A stretch of DNA of 64,000 nucleotides from a virus. Below are positions 5,690 through 28,435 of the stretch, piece after piece. How positions within the stretch are numbered: position 1 is the first letter of the stretch; every line of letters starts with the position of its first letter. The stretch lies in the IMG/VR virus record IMGVR_UViG_3300009194_000008, positions 1 to 64,000 of that record. The stretch is one strand, 5' to 3'. Made by a program: the position numbers and the translations under genes. The notes beneath the pieces are model-generated. The model saw only the letters and a list, made by a program, of their open reading frames with translations, was not told the origin of the DNA and ran no database searches.

Positions 5690-5706
5690 CCCATGGTTTT
5701 TCACAT

Positions 5707-16191: not shown

Positions 16192-16308
16192 AATGCACCT
16201 CCTGGAGGTTATAGTGCTATATAGTTAACCAGCCGGGTATTTTGTAAAGTCACCAAAAAGAAACCCCAATGACATAACCCCTCCCCGGAGGGAGGGATCG
16301 TAACGATA

Positions 16309-18936: not shown

Positions 18937-19005
18937 TTTGTACCTAGATAGTATGTTGAAGTGCGTTACCTTAAACCCTTCCTACGCGTAAGGAAAAAAC
19001 GACTC

Positions 19006-21270
19006 ATGAATACCAACCTGAAGAAGCTGTTTGCATCACGTCACGATGCCATGAAGAAGGACTTCGATCTGGGCGGCTTCGTCGCCTCCATGGAATCGGC
19101 CCAAGACACCGTCGGCAGTGTGCTGGCTGGTGGTAAGGAACTGGCCTCCCGTGTCTCCGTCGAATCTTTCGGCGACCTGGGCATGGAAGAAGCTCAGACC
19201 TGTCAAGAGCTCTACGCTTCCATGGAAGAAGCCCTGGAGCATGAAGGTTTCGAATCCTTCAACGCCAAGCGCGGTGATGACGCTTCCCGTATCGGTGAGA
19301 ACCAGATCATGGCAGCCACCCTGGCTTCCATCGCCGGTAACGAAGAAGTTCGCTACAAGCGCGCCATGCGCGGCATGACCACCACCCCGCAGTCCAACAA
19401 CCCGAACGTCATCTCCATCGCTCCGATGATGGATGGCCCGCACGGTCAGATGCCGGTGCTCTCCGAAGGCCAAGGCCTGGAGAACTACAACGAGAAGTCC
19501 CAGCGTGACTTCCGCGTCATCTCCGTCGCCTACAACCTGGCCGCTGCTCGTCAGGATGCCTTCGGCGAAGCCATCTACCCGACCGTCGTGGTGAACCCGA
19601 CTGAAGGTGGTGTGACCCAGAACCTGACCTACGCTGCCGTCCTCAAGGACGTCTTCCATGAAGTCACCGGCGCGCTGTTCGACACCCGTGAAGTCAACAT
19701 GGTCGAAGCCTTCCGTGACCCGTCCGTCCTGGAAGATGCCAGCACCAAGCTGGTTCCGGTCGTCGACGATGCCGACAAGAACGCTCGCGTGTTCGTGGAC
19801 CCCGCCATCATCGCTCCGGTCTCCATCGACCTCGAGAAAGGCGGTACCGTCAACACCGCTCCGCTGAAGATCGGTGAGAAGTTCGACCTGATCGGCGTGT
19901 CCAACCGTCAGCAGCTGATCGCTGGCAACATGCTGGACGTGTCCGACACCATCGACCCGGCCATGCGTCTGAAGAACCTGTACGTCCGTACCGGTGGCGC
20001 CTCCCCGAAGGTCATCAAGTTCACTGTCGAGCGCATGCCGACCGCAGTGTTCCAGCCGAGCCTGACCAACGATACCCGTCTGGCCCAGCTGAACTTCACC
20101 ACCGAAGACCTGGTGCTGTCAGCCTCTACCAAGGCCATCGACGGTTCTACCAACACCGCTATCGACGAGCTGGCCAACCGTAACTGGACCATGCGCGTCT
20201 CTGTCAGCGCTTCCGGTAACGTCTCCCTGTCCAAGGGTGATGCCTGGATCCACGCCACCCCGGTGGTGATCGAGAAGCTGCTCGACGAAGATGGTACCGC
20301 CCTGGACAAGTCCGCTGGCGATGCCGCTACCGTTGTTGACGCGTTCGGCGACATGACCGTTGTCGGTTACGACCTCGACGCCCGCTTCACCAACACCAAC
20401 CGTCGTGAGCGCGGTCAGCTGGTGCAGACCCGTACTCTGCAGTTCCGCTACCCGATCCCGATGCACAGCCCGATCACCCTGCCGATGTCCACCATGGACG
20501 AGTCTGGTCCGGGCGATGTGGTCAAGACCCTGACCGTGGCCACCAACATCCGTAACAGCAACAACGCTGTGACTCGCCTGCTGAACTACCTGGCTCAGCT
20601 GCGTGAAGTGGTGACCTCTGGTTACGACCGTCCGAAGTTCGGTGCTGTCGAAGGTGCCCTGTCCGCCATGATCCGCCCGACCTACCGGTCCGGCACCCTG
20701 GATCTGGAAGCAGCCATCGATACCGTCCGCTCCAAGGACCGTTGGGAAGACGTCTGCCAGACCATCCTCAACACCATCAAGAGCATGCTGTTCCCGGCAT
20801 ACCGCGACTCCAACATCGAGGCGGCCTTCCAGACCGTCACCGGCAACGCTGATGAGCGTCCCAAGTTCATCATCGCCACCGATAAGGAAATCGCGCATTA
20901 CCTGATGCTCAAAGGTGATGACCGGACTCTGGGTTCTTACCTGAAGTATGATATCGTCTCCACCAACAACGAGCGGTTCGATGGCAAGATCGTCATCATC
21001 CCGACTCGCGAGAACCCGGTCGAGAACGACATCCTGAACTTCGGTCAGTTCTACTACGTCCCGACCATCGTGGCCGATCTCCCGATCAGCCGCAACGGTC
21101 AGACCTCGCGTGAAATCGCTGCCGTGCCGTTCAACCTGCACGTCAACAACATCCCGTTCGCTATCGAGCTGGACGTTGTGGGTCTGGACCGCGTCATGGG
21201 TTCTTCTCAGTACAACAGCCTCCCGGGCTTCCAGACTGAGCAAGTGACCATCGAGCAGACCGCTCCCTAA
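19006..21270 (+). CDS. major capsid protein (phiKZ gp120-like)
   Basis: About 754 aa with extreme codon bias; GLENYNEK...YNLAAARQDAFGEAIYPT typical of phiKZ-type capsids; S/G-x-E prohead protease motifs (SME, SVE, GLE) in the propeptide. Confidence 0.93.
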   Translation: MNTNLKKLFASRHDAMKKDFDLGGFVASMESAQDTVGSVLAGGKELASRVSVESFGDLGMEEAQTCQELYASMEEALEHEGFESFNAKRGDDASRIGENQIMAATLASIAGNEEVRYKRAMRGMTTTPQSNNPNVISIAPMMDGPHGQMPVLSEGQGLENYNEKSQRDFRVISVAYNLAAARQDAFGEAIYPTVVVNPTEGGVTQNLTYAAVLKDVFHEVTGALFDTREVNMVEAFRDPSVLEDASTKLVPVVDDADKNARVFVDPAIIAPVSIDLEKGGTVNTAPLKIGEKFDLIGVSNRQQLIAGNMLDVSDTIDPAMRLKNLYVRTGGASPKVIKFTVERMPTAVFQPSLTNDTRLAQLNFTTEDLVLSASTKAIDGSTNTAIDELANRNWTMRVSVSASGNVSLSKGDAWIHATPVVIEKLLDEDGTALDKSAGDAATVVDAFGDMTVVGYDLDARFTNTNRRERGQLVQTRTLQFRYPIPMHSPITLPMSTMDESGPGDVVKTLTVATNIRNSNNAVTRLLNYLAQLREVVTSGYDRPKFGAVEGALSAMIRPTYRSGTLDLEAAIDTVRSKDRWEDVCQTILNTIKSMLFPAYRDSNIEAAFQTVTGNADERPKFIIATDKEIAHYLMLKGDDRTLGSYLKYDIVSTNNERFDGKIVIIPTRENPVENDILNFGQFYYVPTIVADLPISRNGQTSREIAAVPFNLHVNNIPFAIELDVVGLDRVMGSSQYNSLPGFQTEQVTIEQTAP

Positions 21271-21337: not shown

Positions 21338-21403
21338 CCGGAAGGAATACCCGCCAGGCTAATCATTTGCAGTATGTCTACATCCACTAACACCAAGGAC
21401 GTT

Positions 21404-22576
21404 ATGAAAGCCACAATTTCGTTAACCAGTGATCAAGGACAGACATTGGACGAGAAGACTGTTACCCTTGAAGTCCCGGCGCATGATGCGCTGGAGTATG
21501 CCGAAGTGGTACCTGAGGTGGTGAGTCGATGGAACGGTGGGGCCGTTATTGAACTGACCGTACATAACCACATGGTAACCCCCATACGTAACCCTCAAGT
21601 TAGCTTTTCCCTTAATGGGTCGCTGGCCGAGGTGTGGAACGGCAACATTGTGGTGAGTCAAGCACCCTATCATCAACTGCGGCTCGATGAAGAGATCATC
21701 GCCACCGGTGACAGTGGTCGGTGTCGAGTCAAGGTTTATTTAACCAACGATGTATTGCCGGAACAGTATCGGGTGTTGACTACCCTACCCGGTCCGAGTA
21801 CAGCGCCAGTGTCTCCTGACAACGTAGATAGTAACAACGACCTTGACGACTACCATCTTCTGACAACACTGATTCCTGACTACGATGAATTTGATCGTGT
21901 CATGGAAGTGCGGGACGTGTCGTCTGTCTGGGGTGAAGAGAACACTCACATTATCCCCGGTACGACAACACCGGATCGGGAACGTGGATTCCGGACAACG
22001 GTTAAAGAAGGCACCTCCTCCAATGGTGACAATGGTGTTGGGGGCACGGGCTTCGATTTCAATTTCCAAGGGTATACGACTGCTATCCTGGCGTACCGCA
22101 TTCGCTTTGAAGCGGGGTTTGATTTCGTTAAGGGTGGCAAGCTCCCCGGGTTAGCTGGCGGCGATACCCCCAGCGGCGGTCAATCCGCCGAGAACGGATT
22201 CTCGATGCGACTGATGTGGCGCGAAGAGGGCTACGGTGAAGTCTATCATTACGGACCGTATCGTGAGAACCACTATGGTGATAGCATCGGTCGGGGTAAC
22301 TTCCGCTTCGAAGCAGGTCGTTGGATGAACATCATGCAGCAGATCGTGCTCAACACGATCGGTCCTGACGGTACCCCCAATGCCGATGGGATACTGCGAC
22401 TGTGGGTTGACGGGAAGCTTGTGATTGAATCCACTTCCATGGTCTATCGCAACAAGCCCGAGGTATTGATCAGTGCCTTGATGTACACCATCTTCTTTGG
22501 TGGTACTGGGGAAGAGTGGCGGACACCGAGGGATCAGTACATCGATACCAGCAATTACGAGATTTACGTACTGTAA
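21404..22576 (+). CDS. polysaccharide lyase family 14 (alginate/polyuronate lyase-like) with N-terminal CBM2-like domain
   Basis: SRWNGG..IELTVHN and VWNG (CBM2 pattern); FDFVKGGKLPGL, GFSMRLMWR, SIGRGNFRF, DGILRLWVDG and FFGG (PL14 pattern); AAGGA RBS before ATG 21404 (track start 21374). Confidence 0.82.
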   Translation: MKATISLTSDQGQTLDEKTVTLEVPAHDALEYAEVVPEVVSRWNGGAVIELTVHNHMVTPIRNPQVSFSLNGSLAEVWNGNIVVSQAPYHQLRLDEEIIATGDSGRCRVKVYLTNDVLPEQYRVLTTLPGPSTAPVSPDNVDSNNDLDDYHLLTTLIPDYDEFDRVMEVRDVSSVWGEENTHIIPGTTTPDRERGFRTTVKEGTSSNGDNGVGGTGFDFNFQGYTTAILAYRIRFEAGFDFVKGGKLPGLAGGDTPSGGQSAENGFSMRLMWREEGYGEVYHYGPYRENHYGDSIGRGNFRFEAGRWMNIMQQIVLNTIGPDGTPNADGILRLWVDGKLVIESTSMVYRNKPEVLISALMYTIFFGGTGEEWRTPRDQYIDTSNYEIYVL

Positions 22577-22649
22577 GGAGTACTGTGGGATAAAGAAAAA
22601 ACCACGCGGGGGGGCTATGTAATGTAGACCCCCACCACAGGAAACGTAC

Positions 22650-23423
22650 ATGCTGACCACAGCACTTCGATGGAATGACAATGACCGACATTTCGGTCCT
22701 TTTTTATTTTCTCGCCGTCAGCCCGATGGTTTTACTGCCACTGGACTTGTACTTGAGTCCAATCCCGATTATGACAATGACGATAAAGCCCGTTGTTTCC
22801 TACGGTGTCATCTTGTTGGTCATACCGTAATCGTCTGGCTTCCCACACTCTTCAAGCCATACCGAGAAACGTTGCCAAGAGAGCACAGTGCACTAACCGA
22901 ATCCGAGCGTTATGATGAATACCCGAGGGAATTCGGGGTAACGCTAAACCGGGCGTTTCTGCAGGTATTTTACGGGCGTCAAACTGACGACAGTAGTACC
23001 ACCCGGAGCTGGTCGGCGTTCCTGCCTTGGACAGAAACCCGGTTAGTCAAACAGAACTTGATCGACACCCAGGGAAATGAAATCGCGAACGACGGCGCAC
23101 TACTGGCCGATGATCAATATATCCAAAACTTCACGTTTGAGGATACCGACGGTGCGGTCATCCATGCACGGACGTATTTACGCAGTCTCGAATACCGGCG
23201 CGGGGACGGTTGGTTCAAGTGGTTGGGTTACGTGACACCAATGCCCCCGGTTCGTCGGATACTGGACATCGAGTACAGTGTCGAAGTGGGGAGCGGAAAA
23301 AACGATTGGAAGGGAGGCGTGTTGGGGTGTAGCATCGAAGCGCACCCAAGAGAACTCCATGAGTCCGCGTTTATCCGACATTGTAAGAAACGTGGTCTGA
23401 CGTACCCAATCCCCGCAACGTAA
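22650..23423 (+). CDS. conserved phage hypothetical protein
   Basis: CAGGA RBS; 257 aa. Confidence 0.7.
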   Translation: MLTTALRWNDNDRHFGPFLFSRRQPDGFTATGLVLESNPDYDNDDKARCFLRCHLVGHTVIVWLPTLFKPYRETLPREHSALTESERYDEYPREFGVTLNRAFLQVFYGRQTDDSSTTRSWSAFLPWTETRLVKQNLIDTQGNEIANDGALLADDQYIQNFTFEDTDGAVIHARTYLRSLEYRRGDGWFKWLGYVTPMPPVRRILDIEYSVEVGSGKNDWKGGVLGCSIEAHPRELHESAFIRHCKKRGLTYPIPAT

Positions 23424-23459
23424 AGAAATACCCAACGTCCCTATGTATTGAAGGGAAAT

Positions 23460-23484
23460 GCCCCGGTGGTGGAATTGGTAGACA
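23460..23484 (+). pseudogene. 5' fragment of a tRNA-Leu-type gene (acceptor 5' strand and D-arm only)
   Basis: GCCCCGGTGGTGGAATTGGTAGACA matches bacterial type-II tRNA 5' ends, then breaks off into the HNH gene leader. Confidence 0.7.
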
Positions 23485-23502
23485 GAACGAAAGGTAACTT
23501 CC

Positions 23503-23991
23503 ATGCTGACCATGCCTGATTGGCAGAAAGTCTATGGACCATACACCCGTAAGGATGGTAGAAAGCATGTTGTTGTTGTGACTAAAGATCCTGCCACTGG
23601 TGCAACGGTTTCCAGACAGACGATCTCGTACCCGAAGTACGTGGTTGAAGGCGTGTTGCTTGAAACATTGCCCGACGACATGACGGTTGACCACATTGAC
23701 CGCAACTTTAAAAACGACTGTCTTTCAAACTACCGGGTAGTTGATAAACCAACACATTCCCGTGAAGATGCAAGACACCGTCGTAAAGATTTAGTTGCGT
23801 GCATTGAATGTGGCGTTAACTTCATTCCGTCAAGTAATCAAGTTAACAATTGGAGTCGCTCTAAGGCAGGTCCTTTCTGCAGTAGGAGTTGTACTGGTCG
23901 TTATGGCCAAAGAGTGCAAACTACAGGAAACCGAGTAAAGCGCAAGGTTGTTGACGTGGAGTATTACTATCTAGACAAACAACTTAGATGA
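23503..23991 (+). mobile_element. free-standing HNH homing endonuclease with C-terminal Zn finger
   Basis: TVDHIDRNFKNDCLSNYRVV...H motif; CIECG...FCSRSC; flanked by tRNA sequences. Confidence 0.85.
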
Positions 23992-23997
23992 AATTTA

Positions 23998-24084
23998 GGG
24001 GCGTTGGCGGAATTGTTATACGCACGTCACTTAAAATGACGCGACCGGAAGGTCATGTGGGTTAGAGTCCCACACGCCCCACCA
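23998..24084 (+). tRNA. tRNA-Leu(TAA)
   Basis: Acceptor GGGGCGT/ACGCCCC plus ACCA; anticodon arm CGTCA-CTTAAAA-TGACG; long variable arm GACC-GGAA-GGTC; T arm GTGGG-TTAGAGT-CCCAC. Confidence 0.92.
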
Positions 24085-24099
24085 TTTTAAACAACCCGG

Positions 24100-24780
24100 C
24101 AAGCTGTGGGTGGATTACCGGGATACTGCAGCCTCCTAAGATGAGCGGGTATTGTGAGTTGGGGATAAGACTTGGGCAGTGTCCCTCAGCCATGATACCG
24201 AAACCCTCATTGAGTCCCATCACTGAGATTGTCTGTCGTCTGAGTGATTACGCATAGACAGGCTAGTGGTCCATCTGCTTTGCCTAACGCGCTACGGCGC
24301 TGCAAAACACAGGACAAAGTTTACACGCCTACTGGGTGGTCCACGAAGGGGTGGAGGTTAGGCATGCTGGTCCGATACATGCTGACCTTACGAAAGCTGA
24401 GACTGGACAAGTCGTGGGGCGTTCGCCTTTAATTGGGAAATTATTGGCGAGCTACTGAGTGTTAGTAGGTTACTGCTGGGAGCTGCCCGGTGCTGATACG
24501 AAAACCTTAAAACCCACGGCGGGCCTATTACGCCCTGGATGTTACTTCGGTAACGCGGGGCATTGGTGGTACCACATCTGGTGGGCCACACTACCTGTGT
24601 TCCAGCACAGTTGAACCCACGAACATGCGACTGACTGGAGAGTCGTATACAAGGCTAGAAGTAATCCAACTGTATCGGCGTCCCTCGGGCCCTTGAACCG
24701 ATACGACAGCGATGAATTGGTGAGTTGGGAGCCTGAACCCAATGCCCCTGGGTAACCAGGGTGCGCGAGATGCACCAAGC
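24100..24780 (+). ncRNA. putative large structured non-coding RNA (about 680 nt)
   Basis: No credible ORF; long-range closing helices, UNCG/GNRA-capped hairpins and G-U pairs consistent with the + strand; lies between a tRNA and a terminator. Confidence 0.75.
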
Positions 24781-24815
24781 GACATAATACCCTCCCTTCG
24801 GGGAGGGGTTATGTT
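24781..24815. terminator. GACATAA-hairpin-TTATG terminator
   Basis: CCCTCCC-TTCG-GGGAGGG. Confidence 0.8.
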
Positions 24816-24841
24816 TACGTGGAGTCCATGAGATTTGACAT

Positions 24842-24858
24842 CTACATTATTACGGTGA
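24842..24858 (+). promoter_or_regulatory. putative early promoter C-TACATTAT-N5-TGA
   Basis: Motif copy upstream of the operon containing the non-virion RNAP subunit. Confidence 0.65.
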
Positions 24859-24887
24859 GCTTAACCCAACCGTAAGGAGTCTTACTC

Positions 24888-25595
24888 ATGGATTTTCGTC
24901 AAGAAGGCCTGTGCCTGTATTATCAGGACGCCCTCAATTCCATTCAGCATACCACCGACGACCGTACCGATCGCACGGAGAAATCCGTGACCACGTATGC
25001 CGTCACTACCTATCAGATCGAACTGAGCGACGACGATCTGATCGAGGAGATTTGTGAAGTCGCTGATGTACCCCAGTGGGTGAAAGATCAGTGGTGCGAT
25101 CAAACCGGTTCTGTGCTGGTCGCCGAAGAACTGATCACCAAGGAGGCGACTCTTCAGGAGTCGTCTTTTCGTGATAACACTCGTGACGAGGACCACCAAC
25201 CCAAAGCACCCGTCTTTGAAGTCCGTTGCAAGATGTCCGAAAAACAGCGCAGATTGCAGTACCAAACCGCACTCCTGCGCAGCCGAATCAACGATCTTGG
25301 CAGGGGAACACACCATGGGCCACCACCGCAAGGGGAGAACCCCCTACAAAAATTTACCGAGCGGACAGGCGATCACATCCGCGTCTGTCCGCTCCAAACC
25401 CCAACAGGACGATCCTTCGATGACACAGAAACACGCTGGCTCGCAGGACTCTTCCTCGACAGCCAAGCGCGAGAAAACCAAGCGCTTTCCCAACAAGACG
25501 TTCGGACGGAAATTCCGCCCCGCAAACTGACGTCTCTTAACATGTCGGTGGTGTCCGTCTGTATAGGCGGCGCCACCTTTAACATGGACGGATGA
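24888..25595 (+). CDS. hypothetical protein
   Basis: TAAGGAG RBS; 235 aa. Confidence 0.65.
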   Translation: MDFRQEGLCLYYQDALNSIQHTTDDRTDRTEKSVTTYAVTTYQIELSDDDLIEEICEVADVPQWVKDQWCDQTGSVLVAEELITKEATLQESSFRDNTRDEDHQPKAPVFEVRCKMSEKQRRLQYQTALLRSRINDLGRGTHHGPPPQGENPLQKFTERTGDHIRVCPLQTPTGRSFDDTETRWLAGLFLDSQARENQALSQQDVRTEIPPRKLTSLNMSVVSVCIGGATFNMDG

Positions 25596-26809: not shown

Positions 26810-28435
26810 ATGGATAACGCGTTGCTGGAGCGTGTCAAAGCCGTGACACCCGAGTTCAACCCGTCCATCGCCAATGGACTGGCCGTTGAGCACATGATGT
26901 CTGTGTCTCCCGAAACGGGGACCATTTCTGCCGTGGCGTACATCGACCGTCTCATCAGCATCAACCAAGAGCTCTTTCCCGAAGGACTCGTCTATGACGG
27001 GAGCCAGGTTTGTACGCCGTCCCAGCAATTTGAGGAGGTGACACGCGAGTATGATGCCAAACGCAAAGCCAATATCGCTCGTTCTGATACGTACATGGTC
27101 AAGTATCAGTTCTCTTTTAAAGGAGAAAAACTGTTTCCGCGCTATGTCCTACTCCCGTATGTGCGTGACGGGGGTATTTTAAATCTTAACGGTGCGCTCT
27201 ACAATATCTCGCCGGTATTGACTGACGTAGGCTTCTCTGTGCTGAAGGGTAGTATTTTTATCCCGTTCCGACGCACCAAGTTGACCTTTAATCGCGTGGA
27301 CCATCCCTTCTATGCGAATGGGCGACGTGAGATTGTTTACGTTATCTGGAGCATGATCCATCAGCAGATGCGTGAAGTTACAAAACGTGATCTGGACAAT
27401 CGCCGGTACATCGAGTCCTGCCTCGCCCACTACTTCTTCTGTCGCTTTGGGGTCACCGAGACCTTTAAACGCTGGGGACACGCCAACGTGATGGTGGGGT
27501 GGAACAAGGACTTCCCGGAATCGGAATACCCACGTAGTCAATACACCCGTTTCGAGTCAGTCCACCTGAAGGGGCGACACCCCAGTGGTGAGATGTGTCT
27601 AATCGTACCCAAAGAGGAAGACACGGACTTTGTACGGATGTTGGTGGGTGGTTTCTTCTACGTGGTGGATACCTTCCCCGACCACTTCCGGGAGCCGAGC
27701 TGGGTTGACGCCACTACCAATTGGCGTATCCTGCTGGGCCATCTGGTGTTTGGGGACTACCGTCATGCCGGTAAGCTACAAGAAGACATCGATACCCACC
27801 TGGCGGGGTTCGAAATCTCCCTCGATGAAATCACCCGTGATGATCTCAAGGGTCGCCACATCTATGTGGACAACATCTGGGAGTTGCTGTACACCATCAT
27901 GACCGACCTGGCATGCCATTTCTATCAGACCAGTACCGATGAAGCGTCGATGTACAACAAACGTCTCATGGTACTGCGCTACGTCATGGAGGAGTTCAAT
28001 AATCAGATTTCGAAGTTCGGCTACTTCTTCCAGGGGCGCAAGGATAAGGAGTGGACTGCCGATGACCTCAACGAAGCATTAAAGAAGCACTTCAAGCTGA
28101 GTACCTGTGTCGGACGACTGACATCGGAGCATGGGGAAATCAACACCGTCAGCTATCCCGGGGATAACAAAATCTTCCGGATCACGTCGATGTTGATCCC
28201 GCAGGATAAAGCCCGTAAGAGCCGTGGATACAGCAAAGGCTTGATCGACGATGCGTCTCGCTTGCTACATGCGAGTATTGCCGAGATCGGTCAATTCAAT
28301 AACCAACCCAAAAATAACCCGGATGGGCGTAGTCGTGCTAACCCTAACAAGCGCGTTAGTGTGGAAGGACTGGTACAACGTAACCCAGAACGGGAAGAGT
28401 TGATCGAGTCCGTTCAGAAACGACTGCATCGCTGA
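26810..28435 (+). CDS. non-virion multisubunit RNA polymerase beta-like subunit (phiKZ gp123-like)
   Basis: FNPSIANGLA, YVLLPYV..GG..LNGALYNISPVLTD, YNKRL.VLRY, YPGDNK and LHASIAEIG motifs; synteny. Confidence 0.82.
   Translation: MDNALLERVKAVTPEFNPSIANGLAVEHMMSVSPETGTISAVAYIDRLISINQELFPEGLVYDGSQVCTPSQQFEEVTREYDAKRKANIARSDTYMVKYQFSFKGEKLFPRYVLLPYVRDGGILNLNGALYNISPVLTDVGFSVLKGSIFIPFRRTKLTFNRVDHPFYANGRREIVYVIWSMIHQQMREVTKRDLDNRRYIESCLAHYFFCRFGVTETFKRWGHANVMVGWNKDFPESEYPRSQYTRFESVHLKGRHPSGEMCLIVPKEEDTDFVRMLVGGFFYVVDTFPDHFREPSWVDATTNWRILLGHLVFGDYRHAGKLQEDIDTHLAGFEISLDEITRDDLKGRHIYVDNIWELLYTIMTDLACHFYQTSTDEASMYNKRLMVLRYVMEEFNNQISKFGYFFQGRKDKEWTADDLNEALKKHFKLSTCVGRLTSEHGEINTVSYPGDNKIFRITSMLIPQDKARKSRGYSKGLIDDASRLLHASIAEIGQFNNQPKNNPDGRSRANPNKRVSVEGLVQRNPEREELIESVQKRLHR

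Follow-up and report, generated by a model that had tools for sequence, protein, structure and literature searches.

A predicted large, modular structured RNA carried as optional cargo by phiKZ-like jumbo phages

Positions 24085–24812 (+ strand) of a 64,000-nucleotide stretch of viral DNA (referred to below as the window) probably form the gene for a large, modular and highly structured non-coding RNA, which is carried as optional cargo by phiKZ-like phages and may act in trans as a folded particle. The presence of a genuine structured RNA gene is assigned with high confidence, and linkage of its transcript to a tRNA is considered probable. A function as a trans-acting accessory or counter-defence particle is put forward tentatively.

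Locus and gene content

The window corresponds to nucleotides 1 to 64,000 of an IMG/VR virus record that is 98.9 kb long, with a completeness estimate of about one third. The genes for a phiKZ-type major capsid protein (18961–21270; PF25620, 730 bits) and for a phage RNA polymerase subunit (26810–28435; phrog_2943) identify it as a fragment of an uncultured phiKZ-like jumbo phage. Ten loci (L004–L013) were collected via the RNA polymerase subunit, and the same gene order was found in all of them: capsid gene, variable slot, gene of approximately 235 aa, gene of approximately 400 aa, and polymerase subunit. The slot in the window (21374–23423, behind the capsid gene) is occupied by genes for a CBM2-PL14 polysaccharide lyase and for an Acb3 homologue, the latter being the final protein-coding gene of the cargo ahead of the old tRNA–RNA unit. 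The following elements were located between this gene and the next credible gene after the complete tRNA-Leu, which begins at 24888:

22650–23423, + strand: Acb3-family (CBASS inhibitor) gene, full length (PF25187, E 7e-50)
23442–23458, + strand: conserved motif TATGTATTGAAGGGAAA, present once in the window and aligning with L004 upstream of tRNA-Leu
23461–23485, + strand: 5′ fragment of an L004-type tRNA-Leu (acceptor strand, D arm), near-identical to the L004 5′ exon
23503–23991, + strand: HNH endonuclease gene inside the old tRNA gene (phrog_14913, E 8.7e-18)
23998–24084, + strand: complete tRNA-Leu(UAA) with encoded CCA, abutting the RNA (ARAGORN; Rfam tRNA model, 55.2 bits)
24085–24812, + strand: predicted structured non-coding RNA, long form, from the 3′ end of tRNA-Leu to the terminator; without ORF, with a homologue in L004/L009 and covariation
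24785–24815, + strand: intrinsic terminator (stem 24790–96/24801–07, GTTATGTT tail)

Of the old tRNA-Leu gene only the first 25 nt remain; the rest has given way to the HNH gene and a tRNA-Leu(UAA) that is complete and of a different sequence. The pair resembles a free-standing homing endonuclease travelling with a substitute copy of its own target. The TATGTATTGAAGGGAAA motif may serve as start signal of the tRNA–RNA unit. At the other end, where a terminator had been noted in the initial annotation, the RNA locus is indeed closed by a G+C-rich hairpin (24790–24807) with a GTTATGTTT tail, which resembles the terminators of phiKZ, PhiPA3 and 201phi2-1 (BLAST against GenBank phages); all forms of the RNA end in a terminator. 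The hairpin CCCTCCC..GGGAGGG followed by GTTATG occurs twice in the record, at 24785–24815 and at 16272–16296 (− strand). At 24835–24850, just upstream of the conserved 235-aa gene, lies the motif (A/C)CATCTA(C/T)AT(T/C)A, which is also found 5′ of the homologues of this gene in L004, L006, L007, L011, and L012 and is likely to be a phage promoter element. An exact copy of the motif is present at position 5704 of the window.

Distribution

The slot of L004 and L009 contains an ORF-free stretch that aligns with the whole core of the window RNA (nhmmer E ~1e-68; blastn 75% over 323 nt). This syntenic homologue is 68–75% identical to the window RNA, and its two copies differ from each other by one base in the RNA region. 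Short forms of 0.3 kb, which match the 3′ part only, were found in L006 and in L007/L008. The slot is without insert in L005, L010, and L013 and is occupied by other cargo in L011 and L012; the junction motif described below is absent from the whole records of L005 and L010–L013, and the covariance model of the junction (R1) gave no signal in their loci. Four distinct phage lineages thus carry the RNA (the window, L004/L009, L006, and L007/L008), and its combination of H1/H2 kissing hairpins, four-way junction and terminator, situated between the phiKZ-type capsid gene and the 235-aa gene, defines the family to which the window RNA belongs (family A).

Copies that are 86–97% identical, as calculated from the differences per aligned piece, were present in four further public DNA runs, the sources being one run labelled with a single organism as well as lake water, soil, and microbialite. 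The single-organism run (X2/X3) contains a 24.7-kb contig with tRNA and RNA that are approximately 90% identical; this run could stem from a host or culture with a related phage. Exact-motif scans of IMG/VR, JGI metagenomes, and GTDB genomes gave no further member of the family. Two 19-mer matches in IMG/VR, inside AT-rich coding sequence, and matches in GTDB, within an ankyrin-like repeat gene of an Opitutales MAG, were dismissed as chance. A search for loci via the neighbouring 235-aa protein returned no locus, and the search via Acb3 returned one distant locus that is without the RNA; one 92% relative of the 235-aa protein was found on a Logan contig. Overall, the RNA is an optional cargo of a small clade of phiKZ-like jumbo phages.

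The element directly upstream of the RNA differs among its carriers. In L004 and L009 this is a tRNA-Leu(UAA) (L004:3882–4189, the same in L009) with a group I intron in its anticodon loop; the intron (RF00028, 51 bits) measures about 230 nt, carries no ORF and lies in what we take to be the position of the classic cyanobacterial/plastid tRNA-Leu intron. This split tRNA is missed by ARAGORN, and a spurious 112-aa ORF on the minus strand covers the gene. At the contig ends of X4 and X5, T-arm/acceptor sequences of other tRNAs abut the RNA at 24078–24081. The start of the long-form RNA thus coincides with the end of a tRNA, irrespective of which tRNA it is. In the short forms the RNA follows immediately on the stop codon of a homologue of Tad3 (PF25185, E ~1e-30; L006:3923–4570 and L007:3510–4160, also in L008), an inhibitor of the Thoeris sensor ThsB (PMC13728456). 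The link to a tRNA that had been claimed for the RNA is accordingly conserved in the long forms but does not extend to the short forms in L006 and L007/L008, which follow a protein gene and are without tRNA. With Acb3, Tad3, and phage tRNAs among its contents, the slot is regarded as an accessory site for largely anti-defence cargo.

Coding potential

The description of the region as devoid of a credible ORF was borne out. The longest ORF within 24085–24887 comprises 78 aa and lies on the minus strand. Substitutions between the window and L004 are distributed over the positions modulo 3 of the RNA as 53/63/62, without codon periodicity, as against 99/72/236 over the codon positions of the adjoining 399-aa gene. 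Indels measure 1, 2 or 13 nt in the RNA (mostly 1–2 nt) and 3 nt in the 399-aa gene. No conserved ORF was found among the RNA homologues when peptides of at least 20 aa were compared; fragments common to these peptides span only 9–26 residues and occur in various frames and on both strands. Between the window and L004, the RNA core is 68% identical, the 399-aa gene 66%, and the 235-aa gene 49%, so the RNA is conserved at least as well as the neighbouring protein genes.

Fold statistics and covariation

Comparison with shuffled controls, a check envisaged in the initial annotation, gave a modest result for the single sequence: the + strand folds at −275.8 kcal/mol (z −2.9 versus shuffles), with z −2.7 for the − strand. 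Single-sequence folding by itself therefore gives weak support for a structured RNA. For the window/L004 pair, RNAalifold returned −348.6 against a mean of −250.4 (sd 8.6, 60 column shuffles), that is, approximately 11 sd below the shuffles. The reverse complement of the same pair gave −276.9; the lower consensus energy of the + strand indicates that the RNA is read on that strand.

The structure scored for covariation was the window/L004 consensus fold, to which two crossing helices were added. It contains 168 consensus pairs, 99.8% of which are paired in the two sequences, although these figures are flattered by the derivation of the structure from the same pair. Covariation among homologues, which had been named as a means of checking the RNA, was found: 30 of the 168 pairs are changed on both sides, compared with 0–3 after the 3′ partners were slid by 1–3 columns (approximately 40% paired). 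This margin is large despite the origin of the structure in the same two sequences. A large, ornate RNA on the + strand, as originally proposed, is thus upheld by covariation, by the RNAalifold energies, and by the advantage of the + over the − strand.

Four distinct sequence types could be aligned, two of them over the long 5′ domain, where covariation accordingly comes from two full-length long forms. The consensus fold of the two short forms is approximately 5 sd better than shuffles, with neither strand favoured because the 5′ hairpin is misaligned. When a fold predicted from the window alone was tested in L004, 15 of 25 double changes were kept, compared with about 6 of 16 by chance; this is a weak test, because at a length of 570 nt a minimum-energy fold is for the most part incorrect. 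A gap in H2 is wrongly placed when long and short forms are aligned with MAFFT, so H2 and the loop–loop pairing were compared by eye.

Predicted architecture

The following elements were assigned within the RNA:

24219–24263, + strand: H-type pseudoknot (helix 24219–28/24239–48 crossed by 24231–37/24257–63)
24266–24344, + strand: helix 24266–76/24335–44 around variable region 24277–24334, covarying with L004
24356–24387, + strand: hairpin 24356–66/24378–87 with invariant loop CUGGUCCGAUA; three versions of the stem pair
24393–24410, + strand: invariant stretch GAAAGCUGAGACUGGACAAG, identical in the window and L004
24411–24520, + strand: helix 24411–18/24513–20 enclosing a swappable domain (24421–24510), one compensatory pair versus L004
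24523–24655, + strand: conserved 3′ core with closing helix 24523–26/24652–55 and hairpins 24532–61, 24566–89, H1, and H2
24595–24648, + strand: hairpins H1 (24595–99/24606–10) and H2 (24625–32/24641–48), present in all four lineages
24656–24714, + strand: lineage-specific insert with hairpin 24672–78/24698–704, absent from L004/L009
24717–24778, + strand: four-way-junction module, closing stem 24717–22/24773–78, covariation in four lineages

As predicted from these elements, the RNA comprises many helices, at least one pseudoknot, a loop–loop pairing, a conserved 3′ part and a swappable 5′ part. Compared with the short forms, the long forms have an additional 5′ domain of about 360 nt. Sequence changes in the contigs from the public runs (X2/X4 variants) are given below as found among the 40 of approximately 110 differences listed.

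Within the 5′ domain, the pseudoknot shows three compensatory pairs versus L004 in 24219–28/24239–48 and two in 24231–37/24257–63; among the differences listed for X2/X4, G24225>T turns a G-G mismatch into U-G, and T24232>C turns U-G into C-G. Helix 24266–76/24335–44 has nine pairs, six of which are changed on both sides versus L004, and the variable region that it surrounds (24277–24334) holds many X2/X4 substitutions and deletions among those listed. The most telling helix is 24356–66/24378–87, with evidence from three lineages: its stem reads GGUU-A-GGCAUG/CAUGCU-GACC in the window, GGUC-A-GGUAUG/CAUACC-GACC in L004 and, among the differences listed, GGUG-A-GAUGUG/CGCAUC-CACC in X2/X4, all three pairing in one register around the unchanged 11-nt loop CUGGUCCGAUA. 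Parts of GAAAGCUGAGACUGGACAAG are paired with the 5′ leader in the consensus fold (24096–99/24403–06 and 24102–04/24396–98). The swappable domain owes its name to X2 and X4, in which 24423/32–24509/17 is replaced by 77–98 unrelated letters; helix 24470–79/24487–96 inside it has three compensatory pairs versus L004.

The sequence, its coordinates and all of the helices listed in the initial annotation were found in the window as described; their fate in the homologue was mixed. Helices 24411–18/24513–20 and 24541–45/24550–54 hold in L004, as do 24148–56/24191–99 and 24423–27/24446–50 with some mismatches. The hairpin at 24289–300 exists in the window but falls into the variable region, at which place L004 has a different hairpin (GGTGC/GCACC). 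Helix 24281–88/24357–64 had to be given up: it breaks in L004 (five of eight pairs) and competes with the three-lineage helix 24356–66/24378–87. The long-range helices proposed to close the region (24103–07/24706–10 and 24111–18/24661–68) can form in the window, but their 3′ strands lie in the insert 24656–24714, which L004 lacks, and they are therefore not a feature of the family. Helix 24105–11/24203–09, with one compensatory pair, offers a conserved alternative for the closing 5′ strand. Candidates for a closing helix that joins the RNA ends have different partners in the window and in L004, and none was established.

The 3′ part is the more conserved: in X2 it is approximately 97% identical, compared with 86–90% for the 5′ part (among the differences listed). 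Helix 24532–37/24556–61 carries two compensatory pairs versus L004. H1 is formed by CUGUG-loop-CACAG, and H2 has two compensatory pairs. The loops of H1 and H2 are complementary in the window and L004 (UUCCAG 24600–05 with CUGGAG 24635–40) and in L007 (UCCAG/CUGGA), and UUCCAAC/GUUGGAG in L006 constitutes a compensatory change. The insert before the junction measures 59 nt; L006 and L007 carry other sequences there, and L004 has approximately 120 extra nt 3′ of the junction instead. The junction itself is composed of the closing stem, an invariant arm (24725–29/24738–42), a GNRA-capped arm (24746–51/24756–61) and a short third arm. Its 17 pairs are 100% paired in four lineages, with ten changed on both sides; the closing stem and the GNRA-capped arm covary freely, and the arm UUGGG-AGCCUGA-CCCAA is invariant. 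Model R1 scores 76–87 bits in five family members. The short forms consist of this 3′ part only, that is, of H1/H2 with the covarying loop–loop pairing and the four-way junction.

Comparison with known RNA families

The region was scanned with all Rfam 15 models under lax filters, and apart from tRNA no match was obtained at E <= 10. This holds for the models of GOLLD (RF02032; gathering score 150 bits) and ROOL (RF03087; 99.1 bits) in the region and in the whole 98.9-kb record, the whole-record search for ROOL being run without a positive control. Models of group II introns, RNase P, and tmRNA were likewise silent at E <= 10, and no tmRNA was found by ARAGORN; the only tRNA-type match (ARAGORN, Rfam) was tRNA-Leu 23998–24084. 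The group I intron model RF00028 had no match in 23300–24950 of the window, and the same model finds the intron in the L004 tRNA with 51 bits. Neither the whole RNA nor the junction module had a BLAST match among GenBank phages; the terminator alone matches phiKZ-type phages. Full-text literature searches on large structured RNAs of jumbo phages returned nothing on this RNA. The four-way junction was also considered as a tRNA mimic and rejected: it has cloverleaf topology but is without T-loop, conserved CCA or tRNA-model score.

To our knowledge, very few large (>300 nt) structured RNAs without an assigned function have been described from bacteria or phages, and those examined so far that we know of (GOLLD, ROOL, and OLE) have each revealed an unprecedented RNA architecture.

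GOLLD occurs in phages and prophages, often just 3′ of a tRNA; its 3′ part is conserved, its 5′ part varies, and it contains several pseudoknots (PMC12286853). The match is one of context only, namely the tRNA directly 5′ and a 3′ part common to all forms; in contrast to GOLLD, the RNA is not recognised by the model, belongs to phiKZ-like phages, measures 0.3–0.8 kb and has other motifs. ROOL is phage-borne, is found near tRNA islands, is approximately 0.6 kb long, and combines several pseudoknots with kissing loops and an internal linker of poor conservation (PMC12286853), but its model is silent here, and the helices and conserved loops differ. Of the two options first offered, membership of a class such as GOLLD or ROOL and a new class, the former was dropped and the latter kept: the large RNA is a new, uncatalogued family of an established type, the large ornate phage RNAs.

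Related RNA in Ralstonia phages

The IMG/VR scan also matched the junction motif in two complete 280-kb records of phiKZ-like phages. The matches belong to an ORF-free, terminator-ended region of 735 nt (family B) that is 72% identical between the two records and has a consensus fold of −410.8, against −343.9 (sd 8.2) for shuffles. The region (L028:1450–2210, − strand; L029, − strand; GenBank AP017924 129676–130445) lacks annotation; its carriers are the Ralstonia phages RP12, RP31, FLC1-1B, and FLC4-3B together with one uncultured relative. Like the window RNA, it is a structured RNA of phiKZ-like phages with a terminator behind it, and the two have in common the closing stem, GAG, the arm UUGGG-AGC(C)UGA-CCCAA, and UGC; the junction motif shared by the two reads GAGUUGGGAGC(C)UGACCCAAUG. 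They differ in that BLAST and nhmmer detect no similarity outside the 25-nt motif, model R1 scores 21–27 bits, and family B occupies another genomic place, with its own upstream region, approximately 1 kb from tRNA-Asp and tRNA-Asn. It also has a covarying loop pairing of its own (CUUGG/CCAAG versus CUCGG/CCGAG). We read family B as a separate family that shares a building block with the window RNA.

Proposed function and alternatives

Under the preferred reading, the RNA would be co-transcribed with the element just 5′ of it, which is a phage tRNA in the long forms and an anti-defence gene in the short forms. The 5′ end of the long form would be released by the enzymes that trim tRNA 3′ ends, and the resulting stable folded particle, alone or with protein, would act in trans to aid infection. 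Its most plausible role would be directed against host defence or in host takeover, similar to the role suspected for GOLLD and ROOL. Counter-defence is favoured because Acb3, Tad3, and phage tRNAs accompany the RNA, and it is the gene neighbourhood that suggests it. Phage tRNAs are known to counter tRNA-cutting defences (PARIS, Septu/Retron-Eco7) and are sometimes moved or amplified by homing endonucleases (PMC13728456). These tRNAs too are RNA cargo, and in the present case tRNA-Leu, an HNH gene, and anti-defence genes share one slot; they are, however, ordinary decoding tRNAs, whereas the large RNA is not a tRNA. The narrower proposal that the RNA is itself a weapon against a host immune system, which it would neutralise as a sponge for a nucleotide signal or as a decoy for an RNA- or tRNA-targeting effector, and that jumbo phages exchange it among themselves in modular form within the Acb3/Tad3 slot, is rather unlikely.

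Self-assembly into an RNA-only particle, as a multimer or cage held together by loop–loop and A-minor contacts with UUCCAG×CUGGAG as an intermolecular pairing, is an equally doubtful proposition. GOLLD, the function of which is unknown, assembles into a 14-mer nanocage, and an inter-chain contact in ROOL had earlier been read from covariation as a tertiary contact (PMC12286853); the RNA fills the same niche, being phage-encoded, situated beside tRNAs, 0.3–0.8 kb long and rich in pseudoknots, and it shares with GOLLD the conserved 3′ and variable 5′ parts (PMC12286853). Against this stand the lack of sequence or model similarity to either family and the covariation of UUCCAG×CUGGAG, which fits pairing within a molecule as well as between molecules; moreover, no conserved self-complementary loop was seen on reading the loop sequences. 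Three further explanations are less likely than a trans-acting particle. The RNA always lies directly behind a gene on the same strand and ahead of a terminator, and the short forms showed no promoter of their own, as would suit a cis-acting 3′ tail that stabilises the upstream tRNA or anti-defence mRNA, or times its processing, and has no function in trans. Such a tail is nevertheless quite improbable: a length of 300–800 nt, invariant loops, pseudoknots, and domain swapping go far beyond the needs of a stabiliser, the same RNA stands behind unrelated elements (tRNA-Leu, other tRNAs, Tad3), and relatives with the same flanking core genes lack it.

The true group I intron in the L004 tRNA 90 nt upstream and the HNH gene that invaded the tRNA in the window would agree with a ribozyme, or with what is left of a mobile RNA element (a degenerate group I/II intron or similar) in this hotspot. 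This origin is very unlikely, however, since none of the intron and ribozyme models hits the RNA at E <= 10 whereas the L004 intron is readily detected, the RNA is without flanking exons, its structure is under purifying selection, and it predates the HNH insertion. The most improbable explanation by far is a decayed protein gene or plain spacer that is structured by chance. The modest single-sequence z values, similar on both strands, would agree with it, but compensatory change is strong, there is no codon signal, and conservation is at least that of the neighbouring genes; the covariation counts come close to refuting it.

Significance

The trans-acting particle that we tentatively favour aside, the present analysis adds a family of large RNAs with clear covariation, short and long forms, and swappable domains. 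The address of the RNA is telling, the accessory slot being occupied elsewhere by anti-CBASS and anti-Thoeris genes and by phage tRNAs. Because the junction motif also occurs in the RNA of culturable Ralstonia phages, experiments are possible. Should either anti-immunity or self-assembly prove true, a new chapter would be opened for nucleus-forming jumbo phages; if the role is counter-defence, this RNA and that of the Ralstonia phages would together amount to a repertoire of large functional RNAs maintained by phiKZ-like phages.
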